DNA of 32,000 nucleotides from Trichlorobacter lovleyi SZ (GCF_000020385.1 NC_010814.1:1080001-1112000); one strand, 5' to 3'; counted from the stretch's first letter, positions 4,841 to 24,992 are shown. Notes: generated from the letters alone by a model not told the origin. Numbers and translations are program-made.

Positions 4841-4879
4841 CAAAAACGCCGCCGGCAGTCTGCTGGACCACCGGCGGCG
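4841..4879 (-). terminator. Intercistronic terminator-like hairpin between hao and nrfH
   Basis: On the minus strand, CGCCGCCGG, a 15-nt loop and CCGGCGGCG form a perfect 9-bp GC stem, followed by UUUUUG. Confidence 0.5.
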
Positions 4880-4892: not shown

Positions 4893-6149
4893 CTACTTCT
4901 TGCCGGCTTTTTTCTTCATGTCCTCCGCCATTTCACGGATCTCGGTCAGATCCTTCTTCATCTTGGCGTAACCATACCAGGTGGTGTAGTCAGGGTTCAT
5001 ATGGAACGCCCCCTGGAAGGTCTTCATGCGGTGATCCATGAACATCTCGTACAGGGTCTGTTCGATCTTGGTGTCAACATCGTAGAAGGTCAGCAGATCC
5101 GGGTAGGCAAACGGCTGATCTGCCTTCTTCTTGATGATTCCCTGCTGATACAGGTCGCCTACGATACTGATCGCTTCACTGAACAGTTTGTCTGCCTCTT
5201 TGCCCATCTGGTCAGCATTCTTGAAGTTTTCCTTCACAAAGTTGGGGGAGTGGCACTGCTGGCAGATCGCCACGTACTTGCCCCGCTCCTTATCAAACTC
5301 TTCCTTGGTCAGGCGGGCCACTTTACCTGCCTTGACCACATCCAGACGGCCGGTGGGCTTGCCAGCGGGATCAAGTACACCCATGCCTTTCAAAATAGTG
5401 GCGCGATAGCCCATCCACTCGGCATCGGCCTCTGGCAGGCGAACAGCCAGGAAGCCCCATGCTGACATTACGCGGTGGTTACCGTTGGGCATATGGCAGG
5501 TCTGGCACTTGGGTGCGCGGTTCTTTGCTCCGGGGTTGATGGCGCGGCTGGTCAGGTAGGCGGTTCCATGCTTGGAACCGGACCACATCTCCCACTGGGG
5601 ATGGTCAAACCCCATGTGGCAGGTCTGGCAGGCTTCAGGCTCGTTGGCTTCGGCCTTGGAGAAGGCGTGGCGGGTATGGCAGTTCTGGCAGTCCATGCCG
5701 TACTTGTAGTATTTGCGGGCCTCGGTCTCACGGCCTTTGGCATCAACCAATCCCAATGTGTGGCAGCCGCCGCAGCCTTTCTGGCCGGCCATGAACGCCT
5801 TGGGTTGATGGGGGGAGCGGGGCATTGCATCCAGAGCAACCTGACCAAGCACATGCTTGCCGTCCATATACTGGTTGGCCTGGTCCGGATGGCACTGCTT
5901 GCAGGTGGCGATGGTGGGGAGCTGTGCCTTGGCCACATCCTTCTCGCTGGTGTGATAGGTGCCGTGACAAGCCTCACAGGTCAGGCTTTTAGACATCTTG
6001 CCCCGGTTAAAGTCTTTGACCATCTCCGGCGAGATCTTGGCGTGGCAGGTCTCACAGTTGGACGGCTTGGCCAGTGCCAGTGCCGGCATCAGTGCCAGAC
6101 AGGCAACCATACAGATCAGCATGCTGCTAAACCGTTTCAATGCGCGCAT
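4893..6149 (-). CDS. hao: Octahaem cytochrome c of the hydroxylamine oxidoreductase (HAO) family, short epsilon-Hao-like form
   Basis: ATG at 6149 is preceded by AGGAGG, and a Sec signal peptide (ALALA/KP) is present. It has eight CXXCH motifs. The block CQNCHTRHAFSKAEANEPEACQTCHMGFDHPQWEMWSGSKHG closely follows the conserved HAO-family core as I remember it from Nitrosomonas HAO. It has no C-terminal membrane anchor. Confidence 0.75.
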   Translation of the reverse strand: MRALKRFSSMLICMVACLALMPALALAKPSNCETCHAKISPEMVKDFNRGKMSKSLTCEACHGTYHTSEKDVAKAQLPTIATCKQCHPDQANQYMDGKHVLGQVALDAMPRSPHQPKAFMAGQKGCGGCHTLGLVDAKGRETEARKYYKYGMDCQNCHTRHAFSKAEANEPEACQTCHMGFDHPQWEMWSGSKHGTAYLTSRAINPGAKNRAPKCQTCHMPNGNHRVMSAWGFLAVRLPEADAEWMGYRATILKGMGVLDPAGKPTGRLDVVKAGKVARLTKEEFDKERGKYVAICQQCHSPNFVKENFKNADQMGKEADKLFSEAISIVGDLYQQGIIKKKADQPFAYPDLLTFYDVDTKIEQTLYEMFMDHRMKTFQGAFHMNPDYTTWYGYAKMKKDLTEIREMAEDMKKKAGKK

Positions 6150-6335: not shown

Positions 6336-6947
6336 ATGAAATCGCAAAATGTGCTCGAAAAAAAGGTAACACACGTAAGGCAAGCTGAGATTGTGCAGGC
6401 CGCCTTGAGTGTTATCGGCAGACTGGGTGTCAGTGGGCTAACCATCCATGAGGTGGCGCTGTCAGCCGGTATGAGTGAGGCCAACATCTACCGCCATTTC
6501 CGCAACAAGCAGGAGGTGGTCAAGGCGTTGGTAGAGTTCATCGGCGGCCAGGTCACCAGTCGGGCGGCTCAACTGGCCGGTTCAAGTGGCAAGCCGCTGG
6601 ACAAGCTGGAAAAGGTGATCCTGGCCCACACCGAGATGATTGCCAGAAATCCCGGTATACCAAGGCTTTTGTTCTCTGATGGCGGGATTGCCACCGGCGG
6701 CAGGATTGCCCAGATCATGTCCAGCCGGATAGAGAGCTTGCTGGATACCCTTGCAGGTCTGCTTGAGGCGGCTGCTACTGAAGGTGCGGTGCGTGAGGGG
6801 ATCGCTTCCCGCGAGACCGCCGTTACCATTTTGGGGATGATCCAGTTTAGCGTGCTGCGTTGGATCGGCAATCAAACCGAAGGCAAGCTGGTGGATGAAG
6901 TGGCGCTGTTGTGGGGTAATTTCAGGCGGCTTTTGGAGCGTCAGTAA
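6336..6947 (+). CDS. TetR/AcrR-family transcriptional repressor
   Basis: ATG at 6336. The N-terminal TetR HTH reads IVQAALSVIGRLGVSGLTIHEVALSAGMSEANIYRHFRNK. It lies immediately upstream of the efflux genes. Confidence 0.88.
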   Translation: MKSQNVLEKKVTHVRQAEIVQAALSVIGRLGVSGLTIHEVALSAGMSEANIYRHFRNKQEVVKALVEFIGGQVTSRAAQLAGSSGKPLDKLEKVILAHTEMIARNPGIPRLLFSDGGIATGGRIAQIMSSRIESLLDTLAGLLEAAATEGAVREGIASRETAVTILGMIQFSVLRWIGNQTEGKLVDEVALLWGNFRRLLERQ

Positions 6948-6968
6948 AGGGTGCAAATTTTTTTGCGC

Positions 6969-6994
6969 ACAATGTGAATATATATTTACATTGT
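6969..6994. promoter_or_regulatory. Candidate TetR operator, a 26-bp palindrome
   Basis: ACAATGTGAATAT/ATATTTACATTGT matches at 12 of 13 positions per arm. It ends 12 nt upstream of the adaptor gene ATG and overlaps an AT-rich -10-like TATATT. Confidence 0.55.
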
Positions 6995-7005
6995 GGGGGG
7001 CGGCG

Positions 7006-8157
7006 ATGATCAGGTCAAAAATGCAGCGGCGTACGCTGGTCTTGTTTGCAGGGGTGGCACTTTTAGCACTGTTGTTGCTATTGGTCATGTTTCGTTCAGG
7101 TCCGCTGGCGCCGGTTGAGGTGACGGTTGTTTCGGTGTCGTCCCAGGTGATCAGGCCGGCACTGTTCGGTATAGGCACGGTTGAGGCCCGTTACAGTTAT
7201 CAGGTTGGCCCGACAGCAGCAGGCAGAATCAAGCAGTTGCAGGTACAGGTGGGAGACCGGGTAAGAGCAGGACAACTGCTTGGAGAGATGGATCCGGTTG
7301 ACCTTAATGATCGTCTGCAGGCGCAACAGGCAGCCATCAAGCGTGCAGAGGCAAATGTGCAGGATGCCGAGGCCAGGCAGCGGTATGCGCATGCCCAGGC
7401 TAAACGGTATGGCGAACTGTTGCCGCTCAAAGCTACCAGCGAGGAAATAGTTTCAGCCAAGCGGCAGGAGTTGCAGACCGCTGATGCGGCGCTTGTCGCA
7501 GCCAGAGAAGAGCGTTCCCGGCTAACGTCTGAATATACGGGGCTGCGTTCCCAGCAGGGTAATCTGCGTCTGGCAGCCCCGGTTGCCGGGCTGGTAACGC
7601 TGCGCGGGGCTGAACCGGGCACCACCGTGGTTGCCGGACAAACCGTGATTGAGCTGATTGATCCGGCATCGGTTTGGATCAATACCCGTTTTGATCAGAT
7701 CGCGGCAAACGGGCTCAAGGCCGGTTTGCCGGCACGGATTGAGCTGCGTTCACGCAAGGGGACGCTGTTAAGCGGCACCATTGCCCGCATTGAACCAAAG
7801 GCCGACAGCATCACCGAAGAGGTCCTTGCCAAGGTGTTATTTGCACGTGTGCCAGAAAATCTACCTCCATTGGGCGAACTTGCAGAGGTAACGGTTGACC
7901 TCCCGCCGGCTGCCGCAACGCTGGTTCTGCCCAATGCGGCACTGCATCGTCTGGACAACCGGACCGGTGTCTGGCGTGTGAGTAAGGCCGGTGTTGAATT
8001 TGTTGCAGTAAAGCCTGGGGCAACTGATCTGGATGGTCGCGTACAGATTCTGGAAGGGCTTCAGAATGGGGATCAAGTGGTGCTGTACAGTGCCAAGGCT
8101 CTCACCCGTAAGAGTCGCATCAAGCTGGTTGAAAAGCTTTCGGTGGGCAGGCGATGA
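7006..8157 (+). CDS. Efflux membrane-fusion (periplasmic adaptor) protein, HlyD/DevB-like
   Basis: ATG at 7006. It has an N-terminal TM anchor, a coiled-coil hairpin region and a beta-barrel region typical of HlyD/MacA/DevB adaptors. It overlaps the next gene by 4 nt (ATGA). Confidence 0.85.
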   Translation: MIRSKMQRRTLVLFAGVALLALLLLLVMFRSGPLAPVEVTVVSVSSQVIRPALFGIGTVEARYSYQVGPTAAGRIKQLQVQVGDRVRAGQLLGEMDPVDLNDRLQAQQAAIKRAEANVQDAEARQRYAHAQAKRYGELLPLKATSEEIVSAKRQELQTADAALVAAREERSRLTSEYTGLRSQQGNLRLAAPVAGLVTLRGAEPGTTVVAGQTVIELIDPASVWINTRFDQIAANGLKAGLPARIELRSRKGTLLSGTIARIEPKADSITEEVLAKVLFARVPENLPPLGELAEVTVDLPPAAATLVLPNAALHRLDNRTGVWRVSKAGVEFVAVKPGATDLDGRVQILEGLQNGDQVVLYSAKALTRKSRIKLVEKLSVGRR

Positions 8158-10757: not shown

Positions 10758-10813
10758 GGTCGTGCAATCGGTACTCCGGTATGTTGCGAGGAAAAAGCGA
10801 AGGAGGCATCAAC

Positions 10814-11818
10814 GTGTTACGCATATCAGCCGGGAACATTACCCGTGTCCGCCTGTTGGTGCAGTGGCTGTTTCTGTTCTGGATCATCGGCATCGGCATC
10901 CGCTTTGGCTTGTTTATAGCTGCAGTTGAACAGGGTAATCCGCAGCCGTTCTTTGGCCGGCCAGCCGGTGTTGAGGGCTTTCTGCCGATCGGGGCATTGA
11001 CCAGCCTGAAGCACTGGTTGGCCAGCGGACAGATTCACCCGGTACATCCGGCAGCACTGGTAATCTTTCTGGCAGTTCTGCTGATGAGTCTGCTGGCCAA
11101 GAAGTCATTCTGTTCCTGGATCTGCCCGGTGGGTACGCTGTCCGAGGTTGTGTATAAACTCGGGGTACGATTGCTGGGGCGTAATTTTAAGGTCTGGAGG
11201 CCGCTTGATCTGCTGCTGCAGGGGATCAAGTATCTGGTGCTGTTCTTCTTCGTGAAGATAATTCTGCTTGATATGCCTGCCTTTGCCGTTGCCGCCTTTC
11301 TGGATACCCCTTATTGGGCAGCCAGTGATGCCAAGATGCTGCATTTTTTTACCCAGATTTCTGCCACAACCGTTACGGTGCTGACGGTACTGACACTGCT
11401 GTCTCTGGTCTATCGTAATGTCTGGTGCCGCTACCTGTGTCCCTACGGTGCCCTGCTGGGTGTCCTGAGCCTGCTGAGTCCGTTCAAGATCCGGCGTAAC
11501 CCGCACACCTGTACTGATTGTCGCCAGTGCAGTCAGGCCTGCCCGGCAGGCATCAGCGTGCACAGCACAACCAAGGTTGTCTCGCCTGAATGCACCGGCT
11601 GCCTGACCTGCGTAGCTGCCTGTCCGCATCAGGAAGTGCTGGTCATGCAGCCATCGTTCTGGAAACGTCCACTGCCGGTCTGGCTTTTTCCGGCAGTTGC
11701 CCTGAGCCTGTTTATGGTCTCAATCGGGGTTGGTATGGCAAGCGGTCACTGGCAGACGGTGTTGACCTACGACGATTACCGCCAACTGTTGCCGATGCTG
11801 CCCTATCTGAGTCATTGA
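10814..11818 (+). CDS. Membrane-bound polyferredoxin of the NapH/MauN/NosR-C family (orphan NapH-like)
   Basis: It has several TM helices and two CxxxCP motifs (CSWICP, CRYLCP). Two C-terminal 4Fe-4S motifs follow (CTDCRQCSQACP, CTGCLTCVAACP). I prefer GTG 10814 with its AGGAGG RBS; the in-frame ATG at 10781 would fall inside the predicted -10 element. Confidence 0.8.
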   Translation: MLRISAGNITRVRLLVQWLFLFWIIGIGIRFGLFIAAVEQGNPQPFFGRPAGVEGFLPIGALTSLKHWLASGQIHPVHPAALVIFLAVLLMSLLAKKSFCSWICPVGTLSEVVYKLGVRLLGRNFKVWRPLDLLLQGIKYLVLFFFVKIILLDMPAFAVAAFLDTPYWAASDAKMLHFFTQISATTVTVLTVLTLLSLVYRNVWCRYLCPYGALLGVLSLLSPFKIRRNPHTCTDCRQCSQACPAGISVHSTTKVVSPECTGCLTCVAACPHQEVLVMQPSFWKRPLPVWLFPAVALSLFMVSIGVGMASGHWQTVLTYDDYRQLLPMLPYLSH

Positions 11819-11911: not shown

Positions 11912-12193
11912 TTACATGCCTTGCGTCTGAGGAGCGCCGTGACATGTACGACAGGCTTCTTCAGTCGCTTTGCGTTTAAGCAGGCTGTCTTTGTCTTTGG
12001 GTTGCCCTTTGCCCATCAGTTTTGCTCCCACTTTGTGGCAGCCAAAACATCCCTGTCCCTGTAGTGCCTTATGCATCTTGACCATAGCCGGGTTCTTGCT
12101 GTGGCAGACGGTACATTCAAAGGCTGCCACAGGCGGTGCAAGCAGCAGCATCAGTACCAGCAACATGCTTCTTGTGGTTTGTCTGTTTTTCAT
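11912..12193 (-). CDS. Small periplasmic trihaem cytochrome c
   Basis: ATG at 12193. It has a signal peptide (MKNRQTTRSMLLVLMLLLAPPVAA) and three CXXCH motifs (CTVCH, CFGCH, CRTCH) in about 70 mature residues. No Shine-Dalgarno sequence precedes the ATG. Confidence 0.8.
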   Translation of the reverse strand: MKNRQTTRSMLLVLMLLLAPPVAAFECTVCHSKNPAMVKMHKALQGQGCFGCHKVGAKLMGKGQPKDKDSLLKRKATEEACRTCHGAPQTQGM

Positions 12194-12227
12194 GCCGTTT
12201 GCATAGCACAACAGGAAGGGAATGGTG

Positions 12228-12241
12228 TTGACCGAAGTCAA
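12228..12241. promoter_or_regulatory. CRP/FNR-family box TTGACCGAAGTCAA upstream of the trihaem cytochrome gene
   Basis: Perfect 5-4-5 palindrome whose centre is exactly 41.5 nt from the A of the ATG. A minus-strand extended -10 (TGcTATGCA, 12200-12208) ends 6 nt before the ATG. Confidence 0.6.
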
Positions 12242-13570: not shown

Positions 13571-14962
13571 ATGCAACAGCTGACAACAATCTACCGGGAT
13601 ATTCTGGAAAGTATGGCGGAAGGGATCATCTTTGCCGATGCTGATGATCGGCTGACCTTTATTAACCAGACTGCCGAGGAGATCAGGGGGATCAAGGCCG
13701 AAAATTTTATCGGCCGAACCATCTTCTCGGTGCATTCTCCCAACTCCGCCAAGCGTATCAAAGAGCTGTTGCAGAAGCTGCGTGATGGCTCCATCAAGCA
13801 GGCCCGGCGGGTAATTGAGGTGAAAGGGCGCTATTTTGAGAACAGTTACTATCCCGTGAGCAGTCCTGACGGGGGATATCTGGGAACATTGCTGATCAGC
13901 CGTGATGTTACTGAACGGCAGCAGTTGCAGCATGAAAACCAGTCGCTCAAACAGCGGATGGCCTGCGGCAGTTTCGGCGGGTTTGTCAGTATCAGCTCAT
14001 CCATGCTGCCGGTATTTCAGACCATTGGCGCTGTGGCGGGACTGGAGTCAACGGTGCTGATCACCGGTGAGAGCGGTACCGGTAAAGAGCTGGTGGCTGC
14101 GGCCATACACCGTAACAGCGCCCGCAATGAGCGGGCAATGGTAACGGTCAACTGTGCGGCGCTGCCGGAACATCTGGTGGAATCCGAACTGTTTGGTTAC
14201 CAGCGCGGTGCCTTTACCGGCGCAGTAGGCAACCACCGCGGTAAATTTGAACAGGCGGACAAAAGCACGATCTTTCTGGATGAGGTCGGAGACCTGCCGG
14301 CCAATGCCCAGGCCAAGCTGCTGCGGGTGCTGCAGGAGCGGACCGTCAGCCGGCTGGGATCTGAAAAGGATATCCGGGTGGATGTGCGGATTATTGCTGC
14401 AACCAATCGCAACCTGCAGCAGATGGTGGCGGATGGTCTGTTCAGGGAGGATCTCTATTACCGCCTGAATGTGATTTCATTGCCGGTGCCCCCGCTGCGG
14501 GAGCGGCGTGAGGATATCCTGCCCATGGCGGAGTTCTTTCTGAAAAGATTCAGTGAACGGATGGAACGTCCGCAGCTGGGGATTTGTGAGGCAACCCGGT
14601 CGGTGCTGCTTTCCTACGACTATCCCGGTAATGTGCGCGAGCTGGAACATGGGATTGAGCGTGCCGTTGCGCTCTGTCCCGGCTCGTGCATCTCTCCGGC
14701 AGACCTGCCTGAACAGTTTGTAGCGGCCCGCAGCTCCGGGGGGCCGGACTGGCAACACCCCCTGTCAGTACGGGCCGGAGATCAGTATCGTCCGGATGAT
14801 GCCGCTCCTGCCACCCTGGCCAATGCCCGTGAAGAATCGGAGCGTCGACTGATCCTTGACGCCCTGGTCAGGACCGGCGGCCGCAAGGCAGAGGCGGCAA
14901 AACTGCTGAATATCTCACGTAAAACCCTCTGGGAAAAATTGAAGCTGATTAACCAAACGTAA
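13571..14962 (+). CDS. Sigma-54-dependent transcriptional activator with an N-terminal PAS domain (PAS-AAA+-Fis HTH)
   Basis: It has Walker A (GESGTGKE), the sigma-54 contact loop GAFTGA and ESELFGY. The C-terminal Fis-type HTH reads [18 protein letters not shown]. There is no receiver domain. Confidence 0.92.
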
Positions 14963-14976
14963 CGTTTTTCAGTGCT

Positions 14977-14996
14977 ATGTTACCAAATGGTAACAT
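14977..14996. promoter_or_regulatory. Perfect 20-bp palindrome ATGTTACCAAATGGTAACAT (candidate enhancer/UAS)
   Basis: The 9-bp arms leave only a 2-nt centre and no U tract follows, so it is unlikely to be a terminator. It lies about 95 nt upstream of the TGGCAC element at 15081. Confidence 0.45.
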
Positions 14997-15080
14997 GAAT
15001 CCATCCTGTTCTCCCCTCTCTTGTTTTGTATCCTCAAAAAAAGTTAGCTAAACCAGGTTGTTGGCACTGCCCGGGAAAGT

Positions 15081-15096
15081 TGGCACAGCTCCTGTA
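15081..15096 (+). promoter_or_regulatory. Weak candidate sigma-54 -24/-12 promoter for the nap operon
   Basis: TGGCAC-AGCTC-CTGTA has a perfect -24 element and correct spacing. The -12 element reads TGT instead of TGC. Confidence 0.3.
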
Positions 15097-15229
15097 TACG
15101 CTGTCTGTACTGCAGGGGCATGGTGCGTATTTTTTGTGCATGGCCAGCTTGCGGATTTAACGTTCGGTGCTACCCTTGAATCAGCCAGAACTGGCGCAAA
15201 AATTGAGGGGCCGATAGGGTGAGGTGGGT

Positions 15230-15499
15230 ATGCCTGTTTCAGGTGTAGTACTGAGTTGCAGACCGGGAAAAGAGACCCTGGTCGCAGAACTGGCCAGGCT
15301 GGTGCCAGGCGTTGAGGTACACGGGGCACTGCCTGACGGGCAGGTCATTGCGGTGATTGAGGCTGCTTCGGTCCAGGCCGAGGTGGATATCGCCTCACAG
15401 CTTGAGCAGCTTGATGCGGTTATCAGTGTGCAGGTGGCGTACCATAACTTTGAAGATGTAACCCAAGAAGGAGGCGCAGATGGAACTGACGAGGCGTGA
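15230..15499 (+). CDS. napD: NapD chaperone for NapA maturation
   Basis: About 90 aa, with the NapD pattern VSGVVL...VPGVEVHG...GQVIAVIEA...ISVQVAYHNFED. An alternative GTG start is at 15224. It overlaps the napA start by 20 nt. Confidence 0.82.
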   Translation: MPVSGVVLSCRPGKETLVAELARLVPGVEVHGALPDGQVIAVIEAASVQAEVDIASQLEQLDAVISVQVAYHNFEDVTQEGGADGTDEA

Positions 15500-17792
15500 T
15501 TTCCTGAAGGCCAGTGCGGCAGCCGCCGCCTTTGCAGCAGCCGGGGCGCAGGCGCTTGCCCCCCGCCTGGCTTCTGCAGCCGATGACAAAGGGATCAAGT
15601 GGGGCAAGGCGCCCTGCCGTTACTGCGGCGTTGGCTGCTGTGTGCTGGTGGGGGTCAAGGATGGCAAGATCGTTGCCACCAAGGGTGACCCGGCCGGTCC
15701 GGTCAATAAGGGGCTCAACTGCATCAAGGGCTACTTTCTCTCCAAGGCACTCTACGGCAAGGATCGTCTGACCCATCCGCTGATCCGCAAGGGCAACAAG
15801 ATGGTCAAGGCCAGCTGGGATGAGGCCTTGAACCTGATTGCGTCCAAGTACAAGGAGGCGATTGCCAAGAACGGCCCTGACTCGGTGGCGATCTACGGCT
15901 CCGGGCAGTGGACCGTGTTTGAAGGCTACACGGCAGTCAAGCTGTTCAAGGGGGGGATCGGCACCAACAATGTGGAGCCCAATGCCCGGCTCTGTATGGC
16001 CTCGGCCGTGGTCGGCTTCATGAATACCTTTGGTTCAGACGAGCCGATGGGCTGTTACGATGACCTTGACCTGGGCGATACCTATATCCTCTGGGGGGCC
16101 AACATGGCAGAGGCCCACCCGGTACTGTTTTCACGTCTGATTGATAACAAGCTGAAGAACAAGAAGGTTAAAATCATTGATATTGCCACCCGCCGGACCC
16201 GTACCACCCAGATGGCGGATGAATATATCCCGATGCATCCCCAGGGGGATCTGGCTGCCCTGAATGCCATTGCCCACGTCATCCTGCGGGACAAGCTGTA
16301 TGATGAGTCCTTTGTCAAACAGCATGTCACCTTCAAGCGGGGTACCGAGAACCAGCCCTATGGTCTGAAGGATAAGGAAAACCCCAAAGAGGAACCCAAG
16401 CCGCTGACCTTTGATGAATACAAGCAGCTGATGAAGCAGTTTACCCCGGAGTGGGCTGAAAAGCTGTCCGGGATACCGGCCAAAAAGATTGAGCATCTGG
16501 CCCAGCTCTATACCGACAAGAGCCGCAAGGTCAATTCGCTCTGGACCATGGGGGTCAATCAGCACGTACGTGGGGTCTGGGTCAATAACCTGATCTATAA
16601 TCTGCACCTCTTAACCGGCAAGATCTGCAAGCCGGGCGAAAATCCACTCTCCCTGACCGGCCAGCCTTCCGCCTGCGGTACCGCCCGTGAGGTGGGCACT
16701 TTTGCCCATCGCCTGCCTGCCGACATGGTGGTGATGAACGAGGCCCATCGCAAAAAGACCGCCGAGATCTGGGGCGTTGATCCCAAAAAGATCTCGCCCA
16801 AGGTCGGACTGCATACCATGGAGATGTACCGCGCCATTGACCGTGGTGAGCTGAAGTGCCTCTGGATCCAGTGCACCAACCCGTTCCAGTCGATCCCGAA
16901 TCTCTCCCGTTACCGCAAGGCTGCCCAGGCCCGCAAGGCCTTCATTGTGGTCTCCGACATCTATCCCACCAGGTCAACGGAAGTGGCAGACGTGATCCTG
17001 CCCTCTGCCTCCTGGGTTGAGAAAGAGGGGGTCTTCGGCAACACCGAGCGCCGCACCCAGCACTGGTTCAAAATGATCGAACCTCCTGGCGAGGCAAAGG
17101 AAGATACCTGGCAATTGATTGAGCTGGCCAAACGGCTTGGTCATGGCAATCTCTTTCCTTACAGCCAGAAAAACTTCCACAAAGAGATGTGGGAGGAATA
17201 CCGCAAGTTTACCATTGGCACCGGTAAGGATCTGGCCCCCTATGAAACCTACTTTAAAGTGCGCGGGCTGCGTTGGCCGGTCAAGTCCAACGGTCAGGAA
17301 ACCCGCTGGCGTTATACCGATGCTGATGATCCTTACGTCAAGAAGGGGGAAGGGGTTAAATTCTACAAGGCGCCGGGTAACAAGGCCACAATCTGGTTCC
17401 GCCCTTATGAGCCGCCTGCAGAGAGCCCGAATAGCGAGTATCCGTTCTGGTACTGCACCGGCCGGCTGCTGGAACATTGGCACACCGCCACCATGACCGG
17501 CCGGGTACCTGAGTTGAAACGGGCCATGCCGGGGGCAACCCTGGAGATGCATCCGGAAGATGCCGCCCGCTTGGGGATCAAGAACCGCGACAAGGTCAAG
17601 GTCAGTTCCCGCCGGGGATCGGTGGTGCTGACGGCCGAGATCAATGGCCGCGGCAAGCCGGAGAAGGGCAATGTCTTCACCACCTTCTTTGATGAAACCA
17701 AGCTGATCAATGACCTCTGTATTGATGCCTTTGATCCGCTTTCCAAGGAGCCTGACTTCAAGAAGTGTGCGGTGAAGGTCGAGAAGGCCTAA
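15480..17792 (+). CDS. napA: Periplasmic nitrate reductase catalytic subunit NapA (Mo-bisMGD, 4Fe-4S)
   Basis: It has a twin-arginine signal (TRRDFLKASAAAAA) and the N-terminal cluster motif CRYCGVGCCVLV...GDPAGPVNKGLNCIKGYF, typical of NapA. Length is 770 aa. Confidence 0.95.
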   Translation: MELTRRDFLKASAAAAAFAAAGAQALAPRLASAADDKGIKWGKAPCRYCGVGCCVLVGVKDGKIVATKGDPAGPVNKGLNCIKGYFLSKALYGKDRLTHPLIRKGNKMVKASWDEALNLIASKYKEAIAKNGPDSVAIYGSGQWTVFEGYTAVKLFKGGIGTNNVEPNARLCMASAVVGFMNTFGSDEPMGCYDDLDLGDTYILWGANMAEAHPVLFSRLIDNKLKNKKVKIIDIATRRTRTTQMADEYIPMHPQGDLAALNAIAHVILRDKLYDESFVKQHVTFKRGTENQPYGLKDKENPKEEPKPLTFDEYKQLMKQFTPEWAEKLSGIPAKKIEHLAQLYTDKSRKVNSLWTMGVNQHVRGVWVNNLIYNLHLLTGKICKPGENPLSLTGQPSACGTAREVGTFAHRLPADMVVMNEAHRKKTAEIWGVDPKKISPKVGLHTMEMYRAIDRGELKCLWIQCTNPFQSIPNLSRYRKAAQARKAFIVVSDIYPTRSTEVADVILPSASWVEKEGVFGNTERRTQHWFKMIEPPGEAKEDTWQLIELAKRLGHGNLFPYSQKNFHKEMWEEYRKFTIGTGKDLAPYETYFKVRGLRWPVKSNGQETRWRYTDADDPYVKKGEGVKFYKAPGNKATIWFRPYEPPAESPNSEYPFWYCTGRLLEHWHTATMTGRVPELKRAMPGATLEMHPEDAARLGIKNRDKVKVSSRRGSVVLTAEINGRGKPEKGNVFTTFFDETKLINDLCIDAFDPLSKEPDFKKCAVKVEKA

Positions 17793-17801
17793 CCCCCTCA
17801 G

Positions 17802-17862
17802 TCCCCCTTGACAGGGGGGACGATAGATCTCCCATCTGAACTCCTCCCCTGACAAGGGGAGG
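17802..17862 (+). repeat. Two related GC-rich stem-loops between napA and napG
   Basis: They are TCCCCCTTGACAGGGGGGA (17802-17820) and CCTCCCCTGACAAGGGGAGG (17843-17862). Both have C-run/G-run stems around a (T)TGACA(A) loop. Confidence 0.6.
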
Positions 17863-17885
17863 CCGGGAGGGGTGAAAAGGTGTGT

Positions 17886-18548
17886 ATGGATTCTGACGCA
17901 AAAAATACCGGCATCTCGCGCCGCCTGTTTCTGAAGGGCAGTGTCCTGACCCCCCTGGCCCTTGCCTTGGGCAGTGCCGCCATCTCCGCGGTCTATCTGC
18001 GGCCTGCCCAGGCACGGGGCTTCTACCTGCGACCGCCGGGGGCGATTGAGGAAGCGCGTTTTCTGGCTGCCTGCGTCAAATGCGGCAAATGTGCCCAGGC
18101 CTGTCCGTACAAATCAATTGTCATGGCTGGTGGTGAGGCCGGTGCCGGGATCGGCACACCGCACATCATCCCCCGCGAGAACCCCTGTTACCTCTGTCCG
18201 GATCTGCCCTGTGTCAAGGCCTGTCCCTCCGGTGCGCTGGATAAACAACTGACCGAGGTGGAAAAGGTGCGGATGGGAACAGCGGTAATCGTTGACCGGG
18301 AGGGCTGTCTCTCAATCCGCGGCTTACGCTGCGAGGTCTGTTACCGCCAGTGTCCCCTGATCGACAAGGCGATTACCATTGAGAACCGGCATAATATCCG
18401 TACCGGTGAGCATACGATCATGGAACCGGTGATTCATAAGGACAAATGTGTGGGCTGCGGCATCTGCGAAAAGGTCTGTGTCCGGGAAAAACCGGTCATT
18501 GCCGTCCAGCAGCGGGTTACGGAACAGAAGGACTTTTATGAATTTTAA
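17886..18548 (+). CDS. napG: NapG periplasmic four-cluster ferredoxin
   Basis: It has a Tat signal (SRRLFLKGS) and four Cys clusters (CVKCGKCAQACP, CYLCPDLPCVKACP, CEVCYRQCP, CVGCGICEKVC). An alternative GTG start is at 17880. Confidence 0.88.
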   Translation: MDSDAKNTGISRRLFLKGSVLTPLALALGSAAISAVYLRPAQARGFYLRPPGAIEEARFLAACVKCGKCAQACPYKSIVMAGGEAGAGIGTPHIIPRENPCYLCPDLPCVKACPSGALDKQLTEVEKVRMGTAVIVDREGCLSIRGLRCEVCYRQCPLIDKAITIENRHNIRTGEHTIMEPVIHKDKCVGCGICEKVCVREKPVIAVQQRVTEQKDFYEF

Positions 18549-19356
18549 GCGCTGGGGCATAGCCCGTTGTGCGGTGCAACTGCTGATGATCGCCTTGCTG
18601 GCCTCCCCCTTGGCCGGCCTGGCGATCTTCACGGGTAACCTGGCAGCTGCAGAGCTGCTGGGGCTTCCCCTGGCAGACCCGCTGGCCTTTCTGCAGGCGC
18701 TGCTGGGAGGGCGGGTCTTTGTACTCTCTTATCTGCTCAGCGCCCTGCTGGTGGTCGGCTTCTATTTTCTGCTGGGTGGCCGCACCTTCTGTGGCTGGGT
18801 CTGCCCGGTGGGGCTGGTCACCGAGCTTGCGGACCGGCTGCGCAGAAAACTGGGAACCGGTACACAAACGCTGCCGCTTACCCTCAACCGCTGGAGTCTC
18901 GCACTGGTGTTGCTGGTGGTGATGGCCACCGGGGTTCCGCTGTTTGAGCTGCTCTCACCGATCGGCATTATCAGCCGGGCAATTGTGTTTGCTGCGCTGT
19001 TGCCGTTATTGCTGGTGGCAGCCATCCTGCTGATGGAACTGCTGGTGGCCAGACGGGTCTGGTGCCGTTCGCTCTGCCCGCTGGGCGGGTTCTACAGTCT
19101 GCTGGCAGCCTTCAGCCCGCTACGGATCGGGTTTGTTGCTGATCGCTGCACCCATTGTAATGACTGCCTCAAGGCCTGCCCGGTGGAAGAGGTGCTGCAG
19201 CCCTCTCTGGAACTGAATCATCCCCAGGTGGTTGCCGGAGACTGTACCCGCTGTATGGCCTGTCTGGATGCCTGTCCTGCAAAGGCTCTCAAAATTTCAA
19301 TCGGTTATCAACCGGTATCACGAGACGTAACAGACCCCCTCAAAGGAGGCCGATGA
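18538..19356 (+). CDS. napH: NapH membrane quinol-oxidising FeS subunit
   Basis: ATG at 18538 overlaps the napG end by 11 nt. It has TM helices, two CxxxCP motifs (CGWVCP, CRSLCP) and two C-terminal 4Fe-4S motifs (CTHCNDCLKACP, CTRCMACLDACP). Confidence 0.88.
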   Translation: MNFKRWGIARCAVQLLMIALLASPLAGLAIFTGNLAAAELLGLPLADPLAFLQALLGGRVFVLSYLLSALLVVGFYFLLGGRTFCGWVCPVGLVTELADRLRRKLGTGTQTLPLTLNRWSLALVLLVVMATGVPLFELLSPIGIISRAIVFAALLPLLLVAAILLMELLVARRVWCRSLCPLGGFYSLLAAFSPLRIGFVADRCTHCNDCLKACPVEEVLQPSLELNHPQVVAGDCTRCMACLDACPAKALKISIGYQPVSRDVTDPLKGGR

Positions 19357-19658
19357 TGAAACGTTCTGTGCAGCTTGTATCCCTGATCAGTTGTCTGCTG
19401 CTGCTGGCCCTGGTTCCTGTCCATGCCGACGAGCAGCCTGAGCCCAATCTTGCCGCTGATGCCGTTAAGGCGGAGAAACATCCGCCGGTCATTCCCCATG
19501 CGGTGCAGGATGATGCGGATGGCGCCTCGTGCAACGGTTGTCATACCGGCAGTTTCAAGGCACCCCATCCGGATCGCCTGAACTGTACCCAGTGCCATGT
19601 GCCGGGTGAGGTCAAAAAACCGGCGAAAAAAGGTGGTAAGAAGGCGGTTAAGAAGTGA
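19353..19658 (+). CDS. napB: NapB dihaem cytochrome c small subunit
   Basis: It has a signal peptide and two CXXCH motifs (CNGCH, CTQCH) in the NapB context PPVIPH...CNGCH...HPDRLNCTQCHV. It overlaps napH by ATGA. Confidence 0.82.
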   Translation: MMKRSVQLVSLISCLLLLALVPVHADEQPEPNLAADAVKAEKHPPVIPHAVQDDADGASCNGCHTGSFKAPHPDRLNCTQCHVPGEVKKPAKKGGKKAVKK

Positions 19659-20008
19659 CCATCTCCCGCAAGGAATTTTTCCGGCAGGGGATCTTCTCGC
19701 TGGGCGATACCCTGCTGAAGGCCACCGGCATACTGCAGCAACCTGCTGCGGGCGCCGGGGACGATGCCGTTGAGCTGCCCCACGGAGATCAACCGATGGT
19801 GGCACTGCCCCGCAATGAACGGTGTCTGGCAAAAAACTGTGGCTGTTTCAGCTGTGTGGAAAAATGTGAACAGCAGGCAATTGTGGTGGTGATGGGCGAG
19901 GGGATCAGAATTGATGCAACCCGCTGCAACGGCTGCGGCAGCTGTCTGTATGTCTGTCCGGTCACCCCCAAGGCGATTACGCTGCGGGTACGTGCTGAAT
20001 TGAATTGA
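19655..20008 (+). CDS. Small two-cluster ferredoxin, NapF-like
   Basis: GTG start overlaps the napB stop (GTGA). A vestigial Tat-like N-terminus (SRKEFFRQG) is present. Cys motifs are CGCFSCVEKC and CNGCGSCLYVCP. Confidence 0.6.
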   Translation: MTISRKEFFRQGIFSLGDTLLKATGILQQPAAGAGDDAVELPHGDQPMVALPRNERCLAKNCGCFSCVEKCEQQAIVVVMGEGIRIDATRCNGCGSCLYVCPVTPKAITLRVRAELN

Positions 20009-20056
20009 GTTCAGGTGAATAGTTTCACCAACATCCAGAAGAGAGGAGAATACGGT

Positions 20057-21682
20057 ATGCTGAAACAGAGACTGGCAGTTGCAGCAAGTATTGTCGGGCT
20101 TGGAGCCCTGTTGGCGATTCCTTCGCTGGCAGCACCCAAGGCCAAACCGGCAGCAAAACCTGCCAACGACGGACGTGAGCAGTGCTACATGTGTCACACG
20201 GAGGTAAAGGCGCTCAAGGAGGCATCCAAACATGCCGCACTGGCCTGTTCGGTCTGCCATGACAAGACCAAAGAGCACCTTGCCAATCCCGGCCCGGATA
20301 CCAAACCGGTAACCAAGCTGGACCCGGCGGTTTGTGGCTCCTGTCACAAGAATCAGTATCAGAGCTTCTTTACCCCGCACTACCCCGAGGGCGGGTCCCG
20401 TAAGGAAAAGGGCGTGCCCACCGGCCGTTCACCAATGCAGGATAAGCTGCTGGCCGGTCACGGCTTTACCTTTGAACATGCCGAGCCCCGCGGCCATGCC
20501 TTTATGGTGGTGGACCAGTTTGCAGTAGATCGTTTCCAGGGTGGACGCTACCAGTTTAAGGGTGGCTGGAAGAACTACGACAAGGTTGGCAAGACCTGGG
20601 ATGTGCTGGAAGACAAAGGTGCCAGCGCCAAACTGACCGAGACTGCCATGGCTGGTAACCCGACCTGTATCCAGTGCAAGACCTCCGACCTGATCCTGAA
20701 GTGGAAGTATCTTGGGGAAAAGGGCGGCAAGTTTGACCGTACCTCCAACGTGAATGATGTCATGAAGGATGTCCATAATCCGGTCGGCTGTATTGAGTGC
20801 CACGACCCCCACGGCACTCAGCCCCGCGTGATCCGTGATGCCCTGATTGCAGCCATTGACAAGGACCCGGCCAAGAATATCTTTGCCAAAAACGGCAAGA
20901 CCGACCTGAAGGTGGTTTCCTTCCGTGACGGCTTCCGCAAGATCGGCGTGATGGAGAAGACCGATTCCCGCATGATGTGTGCCCAGTGCCATGTTGAGTA
21001 CAATTGTAACCCCGGTACCCAGTGGAGCGACGGCAAGCCGGTGACCTTTGCCTCGGACCGTACCAACCACTTCCCGCTCAAGAATGCCAAAGAGATCCTG
21101 GCCCACTACAAGCAGCTTGATTTCTTTGACTTCAAGCATGCCGTAACCGGTGCCCGCCTGATCAAGCTGCAGCACCCCGAGGCAGAGACCTATGCCGGCT
21201 CCGTGCATGACAAGGCCGGTGTGCAGTGCCATCAATGCCATATGCCCAAGCTGAAGGGCAAAGACGGCAAGCCGTACTCGACCCACGGTGTGGTCAAGCC
21301 GATCAATATGGCCAAAGAGTCCTGCATCAGCTGCCATAAGGATTCCAGTGTCGAGAAGGCCAAGTGGCAGATCGACACCATCCGTAACTACACCAAGGGC
21401 AAGATGCGCAAGGCCGAATACTGGCTGGGCCAGCTGATTGACACCTATCTGGTGGCTTCCCGTGCCGGTGTCGCCCCTGCCGTACTGGATCAGGCCCGGG
21501 CCAAGCATGAAGAGGCCCATGTGCTGTGGGAATACTGGACCGCTGAGAACTCAGACGGTTTCCATAACCCTGCTCTGGCCCGTGAAACCCTGACCGGCTC
21601 CATTGCTGCCTCCAAGGCCGGGGTCAAGATCCTGAATGATGCCATGGCAGTGGCAAACAAGAAGGAAGAACCGAAAAAGTAG
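20057..21682 (+). CDS. Octahaem cytochrome c nitrite reductase (ONR, TvNiR-like)
   Basis: ATG at 20057 is preceded by GAGAGGAG, and a Sec signal is present. Three N-terminal CXXCH motifs are followed by CXXCK (CIQCK) and four more CXXCH motifs. NrfA-like catalytic blocks EPRGH, CHVEYNC and LQHPEAE are present. Confidence 0.85.
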   Translation: MLKQRLAVAASIVGLGALLAIPSLAAPKAKPAAKPANDGREQCYMCHTEVKALKEASKHAALACSVCHDKTKEHLANPGPDTKPVTKLDPAVCGSCHKNQYQSFFTPHYPEGGSRKEKGVPTGRSPMQDKLLAGHGFTFEHAEPRGHAFMVVDQFAVDRFQGGRYQFKGGWKNYDKVGKTWDVLEDKGASAKLTETAMAGNPTCIQCKTSDLILKWKYLGEKGGKFDRTSNVNDVMKDVHNPVGCIECHDPHGTQPRVIRDALIAAIDKDPAKNIFAKNGKTDLKVVSFRDGFRKIGVMEKTDSRMMCAQCHVEYNCNPGTQWSDGKPVTFASDRTNHFPLKNAKEILAHYKQLDFFDFKHAVTGARLIKLQHPEAETYAGSVHDKAGVQCHQCHMPKLKGKDGKPYSTHGVVKPINMAKESCISCHKDSSVEKAKWQIDTIRNYTKGKMRKAEYWLGQLIDTYLVASRAGVAPAVLDQARAKHEEAHVLWEYWTAENSDGFHNPALARETLTGSIAASKAGVKILNDAMAVANKKEEPKK

Positions 21683-21732
21683 CCATATATACACAAACGA
21701 TGTTCGAAACTTTAGGATGGGTATGAATGGAG

Positions 21733-21764
21733 GGCTGTCCGGTATTGGGCAGCCTTCCTTTTTT
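21733..21764 (+). terminator. Rho-independent terminator ending the nap-ONR operon
   Basis: GGCTGTCC, a GGTATT loop and GGGCAGCC form an 8-bp stem with one G-U pair. TTCCTTTTTT follows. Confidence 0.75.
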
Positions 21765-21884
21765 GCTTGATTTAATACAAAACAAACCGTATTTGTCTTT
21801 TTATTTTTTTACGACGCTATTTTGATGCAATGTGGTAAATTGGCGACCTGTTTTGGGGCATTTGTTATTGATTGAAGTCTCGTG

Positions 21885-24800
21885 ATGAAGTGGGGATGGG
21901 CAGACGGTATGTACATCGGCAAAATCAATAAATTTCGCCTGCAATGGGGGATACTGCTGTTTGGCTTGTTGTTGCTGGCCGGTGCTGTTATCCACAATCT
22001 CTACCGGAACTATGAGGATATCCTGGAGGCTGAGCAGCAGCGTCTGTTGACCCAGTCCCGCGTGATTGCCGTCAATGTAGCCAACCGCCTGGAGAGTACC
22101 GACAGGATTCTGCGTCTGATCCGGCGAGAGCTGGGCGCCTACTCTGAGAAGGAGTGGTCCAGCCAGATACCGCACCAGCGCTTTGAACTGATGGTGGATG
22201 CGCTTTCCGGGGTGCACAGCATGCTGGTGCTGGATGCCCGGGGAAAGGTTGTGATCAGCAATCACCGGGAGGCACTGGGAAGCAATCTGGGGGGGCGCCC
22301 CTATTTTCAGGCTGCCCTGCGTGACCCAAATCCGGAAAAACTTTATGTAACGCCGCCGTTCAAGACCCTGCCGGGAACCTGGGGCATTGCACTTGTGCGG
22401 GTTATCCTGAACAGCCAGGGGCAGTTTAGTGGTGTGGTGGTGGCAACCCTTAACCCTGAATACTTCAAAGTGCTGCTGGGCTCGGTGCAGTATGCGCCGG
22501 ATATGCGGTCGTGCCTTGCCCATGGGGATGGACTGCAATTCATCATGGAGCCGGACCGTCTCGGGCAACAGGGTATGAATCTGGCCAAACCCGGTTCATT
22601 TTTTACCCGTCACATGCAGAGCGGCAAAAAGGAAAATGTGCTGAGCGGCACGGTCTACTCCACCGGCGAACAGCGCTTGATGGCATTAAGCACGGTGCAG
22701 CTTGCAGTACTCGGCATGGACAGACCGCTGGTCATAGCGGTGAGTCGTGACCTGAAGCAACTCCATGCCGGTTGGCACAAACATGCGGTTAACCAGGCCA
22801 TCACCTTCAGTATCATCGTTGCTCTAAGTATCTCTGCCCTGATCGGTTTTCAGGGATATCAGCGTGAACAGTTGGCAAAGGCCCGTGCCGTTGAACAGGC
22901 ATTGCTTGATGCTCGTCAGCAACTTAATGATATTATAGACTTTTTCCCTGATGCGGTCTTTGTGATTGATCGGAACAAGCGGGTGACGATCTGGAACCGG
23001 GCCATTGAGAAGATGTCCGGGGTACCAAAGGAGGAGATGCTTGGCAAGGGGGATCACGAATACAGCATCCCGTTTTACGGACAGCGCCGAACCCAGCTGC
23101 TTGACCTGCTGGATCTGGATGATGCCGAGCTGGCGGCGAAATACAGTAATATCCGGCGTGTCGGAGAAGTACTGGATGCCGAGACCTTTTGCCCGGCCCT
23201 GCATGACGGCAAAGGGGCCTATGTCTGGGCCACCGGTGTACCGCTCTATAATGCCGCCGGGGAACGGATCGGAGCCATTGAGGCGATCCGGGACATCTCG
23301 GACCGCAAACAGTCCGAACTCTTCCTCAAGAAATTGACCCACGGAATTGAGAATAGCGCCAGCGCTGTTGTGATAACGGATACGCAGGGCGTCATTGAGT
23401 ATGTGAACAAGAAATTTATCCAGCTGACCGGGTTCAGCCTGGAAGAGGCGGTCGGGAAGAATCCCCGCATCCTGAAGTCGGAAGCGACGCCACCAGAGGT
23501 GTTTGTAGACCTCTGGAAGACCATTTTGAGCGGTCGGGAGTGGCGGGGCGAGCTGCTGAACCGCCGAAAAAACGGCGAGGTTTACTGGTCAATTACCTCG
23601 ATCAGCCCATTGCGTAATGATAGCGGCGAGATTACCCATTTTATTGCCAACGTTGAAGACATTAACGAGCGGAAAAACGCCGAGGCCACCATCGAACACC
23701 TGGCCTATTTCGATCCCCTGACCGACCTGCCTAACCGCCGCATGCTGCAGGATCGTCTGGAGCTTGCCCTGCGCCGCAGCCGGCGTCATGGCAGTAATGT
23801 TGCGCTTATGTATCTGGATCTGGATAGTTTCAAACATGTCAACGACAGTATGGGGCATCCGGCGGGTGACCTGCTGCTGAAGGAAATGGCGGGGCGTTTC
23901 AGCGGGGTGGTGCGCGACGATGACGTGGTCTGCCGGCTGGGGGGAGACGAGTTCGCCCTGATCCTGCATGATATCCATCAGGATCAGGATGTGGTGCCGA
24001 TTGCCCAGAAGCTGATCGAGGCCGTAGCGCAGCCGGTGCCGCTGGATGGCCGCGAAGTGGTGGTGACGGCCAGTATCGGCATTGCCCTGTTTCCCCGCGA
24101 CGGCGGGGATGTCAAGAATCTGGAAAAACATGCCGACATCGCTCTGTACCATGCCAAGGAAGAGGGTAAAAATACCTTCCGTTTCTACCTGGAGGAACTG
24201 AACAGTACCATCAGTACCCGGATTGCACTGGAACAGGGCTTGCGCTATGCCAAGGAACGGCAGGAGCTGGAACTGCACTACCAGCCCAAGGTCTGTGTGG
24301 CGAGTGGCAAGGTGAGCGGGGTGGAGGCGCTGTTGCGGTGGCATAGCCCGGATTTCGGCCTGGTGTCGCCTATCCGCTTTATACCGTTGGCTGAACAGAC
24401 CCGGCTGATTATTCCGATCGGCGAATGGGTGCTGCGCACCGCCTGTCTGCAGCAGGTGCAGTGGCGTGAACAGGGGTTGTTGCTCAACATGGCGGTCAAC
24501 CTGTCTGCTATTCAGCTCAAATCCCCCGGTCTGGTTGAGCGGGTCGCGGCCATTATCGATGAAACCGGTATACAGCCGGAACATCTGGAACTTGAGCTGA
24601 CCGAGAGCGCCCTGGTCAACAATCCCGATGAGGTCGTGCAACTGCTGGAGCGGTTGCGTACCCTGGGGTGCAGCATCTCCATCGACGACTTCGGCACCGG
24701 CTATTCCTCGCTCAGCTACCTCAAGTCCTTCCCGGTAACCATCCTCAAGATTGATCGTTCCTTTGTGCGCGATCTGGCCCATAACTCGGGCGATCGGGCC

Positions 24801-24992
24801 ATTGCCCGGTCGGTGGTAGATCTGGCGAATAACCTTGACATGAAGACCGTGGCGGAAGGGGTTGAATCAGAGGAACAGCTGACGATCCTGCAGCAGATCG
24901 GCTGTACCTATATTCAAGGCTTTATCTACTCCCGGCCGGTACAGGCTGATCAGGTTTCAGCAGTGGTGCGGAGATTAGGCGGGGCAGCGTAG
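21885..24992 (+). CDS. Sensor diguanylate cyclase/phosphodiesterase (TM, Cache-like periplasmic domain, TM, PAS, PAS, GGDEF, EAL)
   Basis: It has GGDEF (RLGGDEF) with an I-site RxxD (RDDD) five residues upstream. EAL-domain motifs are EALLRW, DDFGTGYSS and QGF. Alternative starts are GTG 21882 and ATG 21909. Confidence 0.9.
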   Translation: MKWGWADGMYIGKINKFRLQWGILLFGLLLLAGAVIHNLYRNYEDILEAEQQRLLTQSRVIAVNVANRLESTDRILRLIRRELGAYSEKEWSSQIPHQRFELMVDALSGVHSMLVLDARGKVVISNHREALGSNLGGRPYFQAALRDPNPEKLYVTPPFKTLPGTWGIALVRVILNSQGQFSGVVVATLNPEYFKVLLGSVQYAPDMRSCLAHGDGLQFIMEPDRLGQQGMNLAKPGSFFTRHMQSGKKENVLSGTVYSTGEQRLMALSTVQLAVLGMDRPLVIAVSRDLKQLHAGWHKHAVNQAITFSIIVALSISALIGFQGYQREQLAKARAVEQALLDARQQLNDIIDFFPDAVFVIDRNKRVTIWNRAIEKMSGVPKEEMLGKGDHEYSIPFYGQRRTQLLDLLDLDDAELAAKYSNIRRVGEVLDAETFCPALHDGKGAYVWATGVPLYNAAGERIGAIEAIRDISDRKQSELFLKKLTHGIENSASAVVITDTQGVIEYVNKKFIQLTGFSLEEAVGKNPRILKSEATPPEVFVDLWKTILSGREWRGELLNRRKNGEVYWSITSISPLRNDSGEITHFIANVEDINERKNAEATIEHLAYFDPLTDLPNRRMLQDRLELALRRSRRHGSNVALMYLDLDSFKHVNDSMGHPAGDLLLKEMAGRFSGVVRDDDVVCRLGGDEFALILHDIHQDQDVVPIAQKLIEAVAQPVPLDGREVVVTASIGIALFPRDGGDVKNLEKHADIALYHAKEEGKNTFRFYLEELNSTISTRIALEQGLRYAKERQELELHYQPKVCVASGKVSGVEALLRWHSPDFGLVSPIRFIPLAEQTRLIIPIGEWVLRTACLQQVQWREQGLLLNMAVNLSAIQLKSPGLVERVAAIIDETGIQPEHLELELTESALVNNPDEVVQLLERLRTLGCSISIDDFGTGYSSLSYLKSFPVTILKIDRSFVRDLAHNSGDRAIARSVVDLANNLDMKTVAEGVESEEQLTILQQIGCTYIQGFIYSRPVQADQVSAVVRRLGGAA

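Follow-up and report, generated by a model that had tools for sequence, protein, structure and literature searches.

In the genome of Trichlorobacter lovleyi SZ, a cluster of nitrate reduction (nap) genes ends with a gene for an octahaem nitrite reductase (ONR), which raises the question of whether the two systems are expressed as one unit and which donor supplies electrons to the ONR. We analysed a stretch of 32,000 nucleotides (nt) containing this cluster (GCF_000020385.1, NC_010814.1:1080001-1112000; termed the window herein, with positions counted from its first nucleotide). Its gene order and annotations correspond to Glov_1041 to Glov_1062 of T. lovleyi SZ, 22 consecutive genes (supplement of PMC11972089), and the cluster itself corresponds, by gene order, to Glov_1055 to Glov_1061. 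With a probability of roughly 85%, the cluster represents the already described Trichlorobacter Nap-ONR module for nitrate ammonification, expressed as a sigma-54-driven transcript of roughly 6.5 kb that would provide an electron route through Nap and ONR. The locus type is not new, since it has been described for T. lovleyi (PMC11972089; ISME J 2025) and, according to the papers citing it, for T. ammonificans (Sorokin et al., ISME J 2023). The additions made here concern its regulation, natural variants lacking napGH, and a ferredoxin gene linked to the ONR gene (onr); these are refinements of a described system and have some value as such.

The last gene of the cluster (20057 to 21682, plus strand) encodes a protein with a Sec signal and eight haem-binding motifs, seven of the CXXCH type (at residues 43, 64, 93, 245, 308, 391, and 423) and, as the fourth, a CIQCK motif at residue 204. 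The protein matches PDB entry 8rv0, an octahaem nitrite reductase, with an E value of 1.4e-293 over residues 39 to 532, and the structures 2ot4 and 2zo5 of TvNiR from Thioalkalivibrio nitratireducens with an E value of about 1e-153 over residues 41 to 530 (49% identity). With the TaNiR chain of T. ammonificans it shares 81% identity, and its top match in the genome collection comes from a Trichlorobacter metagenome-assembled genome (98%). Among 15 ONRs, one of which is TvNiR, the active-site residues Y315 and C317 (in HVEYNCNPG), H361 (in FKHA), and R145 (in HAEPR) do not vary. With TvNiR, the protein shares full-length homology, the number of haems, CXXCK at haem 4, and the catalytic Tyr-Cys, His, and Arg. 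Haem motifs and structure-database matches together bear out the view, taken in an earlier prediction made from the sequence (the original prediction), that an ONR gene closes the operon; its product is predicted to reduce nitrite to ammonium at the CXXCK haem. Hexameric assembly and six-electron reduction of nitrite to ammonium have been reported for both TvNiR and TaNiR. NrfHA carries out the same reaction with the same catalytic haem motif; compared with pentahaem NrfA, the ONR carries three additional haems at its N terminus and lacks an adjacent NrfH gene. NrfA structures match the ONR at 1e-31 at best, in its C-terminal part only, and its score against the NrfA equivalog model is 128 bits, far under the cutoff of 595. 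An octahaem tetrathionate reductase (OTR), a hydroxylamine oxidoreductase (HAO), and a pentahaem NrfA were considered as assignments and ruled out by CXXCK at haem 4, the full-length TvNiR/TaNiR homology, and the subcutoff NrfA score.

All seven open reading frames (ORFs) called between 15224 and 21682 lie on the plus strand, in the order napD, napA, napG, napH, napB-like gene, ferredoxin gene, and onr. Profile searches confirmed the predicted napDAGHB set without napC, with borderline scores for NapB. The napD gene (15224 to 15499) encodes the NapA chaperone (Pfam NapD, 3.4e-20, 72.3 bits against a cutoff of 28; the NCBIfam equivalog of the E. coli type gives 24.1 bits, below 113). NapA (15480 to 17792) exceeds the cutoffs of both NF010055 (NCBIfam NapA, 1065.5 bits; cutoff, 904) and TIGR01706 (1026.9 bits; cutoff, 930.55), contains the Pfam domains TAT_signal, Molybdop_Fe4S4, Molybdopterin, and Molydop_binding, and has E. 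coli NapA (2nya) as its nearest solved relative (E = 1e-264). NapG, a Tat-exported periplasmic poly-ferredoxin with an SRRLFLK motif, is encoded from 17880 (GTG) or 17886 (ATG) to 18548; it scores 185.2 bits with TIGR00397 (MauM/NapG; cutoff, 178.85) and 265.6 bits, slightly below the cutoff of 269, with NF007012. NapH (18538 to 19356), the ferredoxin subunit of the membrane quinol dehydrogenase, passes TIGR02163 (238.5 bits; cutoff, 213.05) and NF007013 (237 bits; cutoff, 234).

The napB-like gene (19353 to 19658, plus strand) encodes a short dihaem cytochrome c of 101 amino acids, a probable NapB variant, with two CXXCH motifs and a Lys-rich C-terminal tail. It scores 25.8 bits with Pfam NapB (cutoff, 25.1) and an E value of 0.027 against the PDB, and it has no NCBIfam match; its signatures PPxIPH and R-x-x-C-T-Q-C-H-V-P align with Cupriavidus NapB (3ml1_B). 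This short form with the Lys-rich tail is kept in all nap-linked relatives. The NapB-like proteins of the clade are unusually short (93 to 125 amino acids), and all have a Lys-rich end, for example, KKPAKKGGKKAVKK. Searches of the PDB with NapA, NapG, NapH, NapB, and the ferredoxin returned no solved Nap-ONR complex and no structure with NapG or NapH.

The spacing of the seven genes agrees with the original prediction down to the nucleotide in most respects. The ORF coordinates overlap by exactly 20 nt (napD/napA), 11 nt (napG/napH), 4 nt (napH/napB), and 4 nt (napB/ferredoxin gene). The junctions are overlapping or short, and each has a ribosome-binding site. The largest gap, between napA and napG, measures the predicted 93 nt when napG begins at the ATG at 17886; it is 87 nt from the GTG at 17880, which is nearer to a GGAGG sequence and better placed as a start. 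The predicted gap of 48 nt between the ferredoxin gene and onr contains a strong ribosome-binding site, GAGAGGAGA, 7 to 8 nt ahead of the ATG at 20057. A sequence scan found no sigma-70-like or sigma-54-like promoter match and no terminator ahead of onr. The end of the unit is marked by an intrinsic terminator (21729 to 21764, plus strand) with a 13-bp stem containing 8 GC pairs and a 4-nt loop (stem-loop, 21729 to 21758), followed by TTTTTT. It is the sole strong terminator-like site between 14800 and 22000, as had been claimed, at a position a few nucleotides off the predicted 21733 to 21764; the scan of this region gave 10 sites, a number within chance (7.8 ± 3.7 in shuffled sequences), and the nine others have stems of 5 to 6 bp.

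The two stem-loops predicted between napA and napG are present as G/C-rich hairpins of 7 bp each (GTCCCCC/GGGGGAC, 17801 to 17821, and CCTCCCC/GGGGAGG, 17843 to 17862, plus strand), neither of which is followed by a run of T. In the minimum-energy fold of the spacer, they fuse to form a single long hairpin (−49.9 kcal/mol; z = −2.46 versus shuffled sequences). The spacer is only 9 nt long in the closest full-length relative (locus L081), and the hairpins are a species-specific insert. Within the window, the hairpin motif is confined to this spacer (4 strand-matches versus 0.6 expected), and a REP-like repeated element, which we considered as an explanation, is ruled out by its occurrence nowhere else in the window. 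An Rfam scan of 14900 to 21900 at a permissive threshold returned two subthreshold chance matches only, and the hairpins thus match no known RNA family.

Published expression data agree with this layout: in nitrate-ammonifying cultures, Glov_1055 to Glov_1061 were all induced with log2 fold changes of 5.31 to 5.82, and the downstream gene Glov_1062 with one of 1.12 (PMC11972089). In two relatives, moreover, onr begins within the ferredoxin gene, the shared stretch being 7 nt in locus L156 and 4 nt in locus L157. With the short junctions, the uniform fold changes, and no internal terminator or promoter match, a single transcription unit from napD to onr is well supported, and the predicted co-transcription of Nap and ONR genes probably applies.

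How this unit might be switched on is suggested by the region upstream of napD. A gene for a PAS-domain, sigma-54-dependent transcriptional activator (13571 to 14962, plus strand; Pfam PAS_4, Sigma54_activat [3.9e-70], AAA_lid_14, and HTH_8) precedes the operon and is the probable regulator; the same gene lies directly 5′ of napD in loci L081, L084, and L086. Between the two is a sigma-54-type promoter-like site, TGGCACAGCTCCTGTAT (15081 to 15097, plus strand), 143 nt before napD. It is the only match to TGGCAC-N5-YTGY in the 32 kb, where one match is not unexpected by chance. TGGCAC-N6-TGT at this site aligns with TGGCAC-N6-TGC in the three relatives, and a palindrome, TGTTACCAAATGGTAACA (GTTAC-N6-GTAAC; 14978 to 14995, plus strand), is located 92 to 112 nt upstream of the −24 element as a candidate upstream activator site. 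Promoter-like site and palindrome occur together in 4/4 loci in which the activator gene stands beside napD and in 0/5 loci in which it does not. The site carries weight because it is conserved with the activator gene, and on that ground only. We infer a sigma-54 promoter driven by the adjacent PAS activator. In those parts of the main text of PMC11972089 that were accessible, a sigma-54 promoter, the activator, the hairpins, and a synteny survey are apparently not mentioned.

To place the locus among its relatives, a synteny survey was anchored on ONR (80 loci, one genome per species, plus annotated contexts); for Geobacterales, loci with enough upstream sequence were tallied (n = 18, not counting the window itself). 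A nap-onr linkage was found in 10 of these 18 loci. The complete arrangement napDAGHB-ferredoxin-onr is present in six distinct loci (L003, L009, L081/L082, L084, L156, and L157), and four loci have napDA-napB-ferredoxin-onr with no napGH (L008, L013, L083, and L086). The remaining loci have the ferredoxin gene and onr only (two loci, L005 and L006) or onr alone (six loci, L002, L007, L011, L053, L085, and L087). In Geobacter sp. FeAm09 (L086, CP042466.1), the 390-nt gap between napA and napB holds a napH remnant (6919 to 7128; 37% identity to NapH residues 94 to 162, E = 1.7e-8), and this pseudogene indicates that napGH was deleted there. The complete genomes with the arrangement lacking napGH are this one and OW818669.1. 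It was the only such case; no nap or ferredoxin gene remnants were found upstream of the solitary onr genes. A quick neighbour-joining tree of the ONRs (calculated without support values) shows the four arrangements intermixed, which suggests that the Geobacterales ancestor may have had napDAGHB-ferredoxin-onr and that this full cluster was eroded repeatedly.

About 45 more distant ONR loci all lack a same-strand nap gene upstream of onr; unlike in T. lovleyi, the beta- and gammaproteobacterial ONR loci in the sample are without nap genes. Several betaproteobacterial loci share the same downstream gene sizes, consistent with onr followed by ccmABC-E-F-type maturation genes (the ccm identity was read in L026 only). 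Other arrangements of nap and onr recur elsewhere: in Mucispirillum (L033, L047, L048, and L057), onr is divergent to a tetrahaem cytochrome gene, napA, napD, napG, and napH, and on a Dissulfurispiraceae contig (L020), onr, a tetrahaem cytochrome gene, and napA follow each other on one strand. In both, the gene between onr and napA encodes a soluble tetrahaem cytochrome of 139 to 140 amino acids that replaces the NapB variant. Since the linkage is conserved and recurs in other phyla in other arrangements, a functional coupling of nap and onr is supported. The linkage is therefore conserved but not obligatory; a linkage unique to this locus, which would have spoken against the original prediction, is not what the survey shows.

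From these data, a scheme of the module can be proposed. Transcription would start at the sigma-54-type promoter about 140 nt before napD, with the activator bound to the palindrome about 100 nt further upstream, and a single transcript of roughly 6.5 kb would cover napD, napA, napG, napH, napB, the ferredoxin gene, and onr up to the terminator at 21729 to 21764. By homology, NapD would act as the chaperone of Tat-exported NapA, NapH and NapG as a menaquinol-oxidising membrane/periplasmic iron-sulphur pair, and NapB as the dihaem donor to NapA. Following established Nap biology, electrons would flow from menaquinol via NapH/NapG and NapB to NapA, which would reduce nitrate to nitrite. The nitrite made by NapA would then be consumed on the spot by the co-expressed ONR and converted to ammonium. 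That the ONR of T. lovleyi is fed by the same NapGH/NapB branch has, in our estimate, about an even chance.

Several points weigh against this scheme. At the level of the transcript, read-through or processing could be influenced by the hairpins between napA and napG. The promoter-like site has GT at its −12 element where the relatives have GC, and in about half of all cases one match to the relaxed sigma-54 pattern would arise by chance. We also considered that onr is transcribed independently, from a promoter within or ahead of the 48-nt spacer; a shared regulon would then account for the similar fold changes. The spacer is the second largest gap of the operon, its length varies in relatives (36 to 137 nt in L081, L083, L084, and L086), and the many solitary onr genes must have promoters of their own; nevertheless, no sigma-70-like or sigma-54-like match precedes onr and no terminator follows the ferredoxin gene, the two genes overlap in L156 and L157, and the fold changes stay within 0.5 log2 units across the seven genes and drop sharply at the next one, all of which makes an independent unit highly improbable. 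As to the electron route, the original prediction held that NapGH is the only quinol-oxidising module encoded here. For the operon, ORF calls and profile searches indeed revealed no NapC/NirT-family gene, NrfH included, between 15224 and 21764, but the window contains a further candidate. An NrfH gene (4322 to 4843, minus strand; four CXXCH motifs; TIGR03153, 145.9 bits; cutoff, 134.2), encoding a tetrahaem quinol dehydrogenase, lies upstream of and outside the operon. It is the only NapC/NirT-family gene in the window and forms a complete nrfH-nrfA pair (2860 to 4843, minus strand) with a gene for pentahaem NrfA (2860 to 4362, minus strand; CLTCK). Because this pair is encoded 10 kb away, a quinol dehydrogenase of this family is available near the operon, as an alternative candidate donor to the ONR; its T. 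lovleyi counterpart, Glov_1043, is co-induced (log2 fold change, 4.63).

The ONR might be co-transcribed with nap and yet be reduced by NrfH or by the general periplasmic multihaem cytochrome pool of Geobacterales served by other inner-membrane quinol oxidases, the linkage serving only to co-express and co-localise the enzymes that make and consume nitrite. Relatives favour this idea: onr genes whose products share 62 to 77% identity stand alone or with the ferredoxin gene only in 8 of the 18 evaluable Geobacterales loci, four more keep napA, napB, the ferredoxin gene, and onr without napGH, and the distant loci lack upstream nap genes on the same strand. Dependence of the ONR on NapGH/NapB is therefore not obligatory, as it persists in relatives that have lost napGH or have no nap genes at all. 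The N-terminal trihaem part of the ONR, moreover, matches cytochrome c3/c7 families. On the other hand, onr shares its operon with napGH and is equally induced, and the Mucispirillum nap-onr clusters also contain napGH. T. ammonificans, which is said to lack NrfAH, reportedly respires nitrite with TaNiR, and NapGH has reportedly been proposed as the donor to both NapAB and TaNiR. On balance, we regard another donor as possible, though at clearly less than even odds. That the ONR mainly serves detoxification (of nitrite, hydroxylamine, NO, or sulphite), with pentahaem NrfAs carrying the respiratory flux, is in turn unlikely. T. lovleyi has two pentahaem NrfAs, and NrfA-2 is induced about 20-fold above the ONR (log2 fold changes of 9.97 and 5.67, respectively; PMC11972089), so the ONR may contribute only a minor part of the flux here; a role of ONR enzymes in respiration or in detoxification has been called unclear so far (PMC10949509). 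However, the active-site residues are fully conserved, and TaNiR, a close homologue, has been called a proven ammonifying nitrite reductase in vivo; its host, T. ammonificans, has no pentahaem NrfA according to PMC11972089. The Nap-ONR module described above stays our preferred reading. As regards the donor of the six electrons to the ONR, the napGH-less variants, such as that of Geobacter sp. FeAm09, and the ferredoxin that tracks with onr are ready test cases.

The gene between napB and onr (19655 to 20008, plus strand) encodes a ferredoxin of 117 amino acids with two [4Fe-4S] clusters and the N terminus MTISRKEFF, which had been predicted to be NapF-like. A poly-ferredoxin gene is indeed present in the cluster, but its product misses the cutoff of the NapF family and matches Fer4 families only: with TIGR00402, it scores 27.9 bits (cutoff, 102.2), and only positions 102 to 146 of the 149 model positions (the last 45) are aligned. 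It resembles NapF of the E. coli type in being a small poly-ferredoxin of the cytoplasmic type, with a Tat-like motif at the N terminus and a gene inside a nap cluster; unlike NapF, it has 117 amino acids with two cluster motifs and stays beside onr where nap is absent. Its homologues have eight conserved Cys residues, equivalent to two clusters, and a conserved S-R-K-[ED]-F-F motif, in which the basic pair is always R-K and never R-R across 13 homologues. The gene lies directly 5′ of onr wherever nap and onr share a strand, as well as in two nap-less loci, and is the most constant neighbour of onr. A scan of metagenome contigs with the ferredoxin pattern GCGxCx[YD][VI]CP was swamped by generic ferredoxins and gave one short full-length relative. 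In Geobacter sp. AOG2 (L155, 7001 to 7405), an orphan ferredoxin of the onr-linked type sits between bcp and downstream flank genes of the L086 type, where nap and onr appear to have been lost around it. That this protein is not a NapF but an ONR-linked partner, so that it and/or the Lys-tailed NapB would act in electron entry into or maturation of the ONR, with NapGH dispensable and no quinol dehydrogenase of the NapC/NrfH or NapGH type involved, is a reading that we consider quite unlikely. On this reading, the ancestral Geobacterales unit would repeatedly have lost first napGH and later the other nap genes, with the ferredoxin gene and onr retained. All the same, if any part of the locus may still yield a modestly novel result, it is the ferredoxin.

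Much of the locus has close parallels. The Nap-TaNiR system of T. ammonificans G1 (structures 8rv0, 8rvm, and 8rxu) likewise has a Nap locus followed by the ONR gene, and citing papers refer to it as a Nap-TaNiR complex or module; unlike in T. ammonificans, the window also carries nrfHA. For T. lovleyi, PMC11972089 described a nap cluster without a canonical NapC and with a NapF-like gene, and noted that the ONR gene (“nrfA-3”, Glov_1061) lies immediately downstream of nap, “suggesting functional pairing”; for the corresponding partnership in T. ammonificans, it refers to Sorokin et al. 2023. In a 2026 review, the term used is “a novel Nap-TaNiR complex”. Through nitrate ammonification, soils and sludge retain nitrogen that would otherwise escape as gas, and the importance of Geobacterales in this process is becoming apparent. 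An operon combining Nap and ONR offers a compact substitute for the classical NrfAH pathway, a point made in 2023 and 2025. The arrangement of a nap locus followed by an octahaem cytochrome gene is reportedly common to many Geobacteraceae. In Wolinella succinogenes, the napAGHBFLD cluster lacks napC, NapGH oxidises menaquinol, and nitrite is reduced via a separate nrfHAIJ locus. The operon resembles such NapC-independent Nap systems of Campylobacterota in its A-G-H-B-F order, the lack of napC, and the presence of NapGH; unlike in Wolinella, napD is first and not last, napL is missing, the “F” protein falls short of the NapF model, and the operon ends with an added ONR gene.

The window as a whole reads as a nitrate/nitrite island. 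It starts with genes for a NIT-domain methyl-accepting chemotaxis protein, nrfA, nrfH, an octahaem cytochrome, an efflux system (TetR/HlyD/MacB/ABC), and a hemerythrin and continues with those for a NapH-like 4Fe-4S protein, a trihaem cytochrome, rubrerythrin, Bcp, the PAS/sigma-54 activator, nap-onr, and a GGDEF/EAL protein. The octahaem cytochrome (4893 to 6149, minus strand; 418 amino acids, eight CXXCH motifs) is encoded by the gene that immediately precedes nrfH-nrfA on their strand. Its N-terminal half resembles the HAO/hydrazine dehydrogenase type (NF052343, 74.8 bits, far below the cutoff); it corresponds to Glov_1044, annotated as “conserved hypothetical”, with a log2 fold change of 4.13 (supplement of PMC11972089). 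A second NapH-like membrane poly-ferredoxin (10781 to 11818, plus strand; TIGR02163, 87 bits, below the cutoff) is convergent with a trihaem cytochrome of 109 amino acids (11912 to 12241, minus strand), and the counterparts of this pair, Glov_1050 and Glov_1051, have log2 fold changes of 4.58 and 2.40. At the flank of the island, the NIT-domain (nitrate/nitrite-sensing) chemotaxis protein is encoded at 721 to 2787 (minus strand); the same gene occurs upstream of nap-onr in L081. Right after the terminator of the operon, a gene for a dCache/PAS/GGDEF/EAL protein (21882 to 24992) is weakly induced, as its log2 fold change of 1.12 indicates. A similar GGDEF/EAL gene follows onr in L081, and L157 has a PAS-GGDEF gene, which hints at a possible conserved link between cyclic-di-GMP and nap-onr loci.

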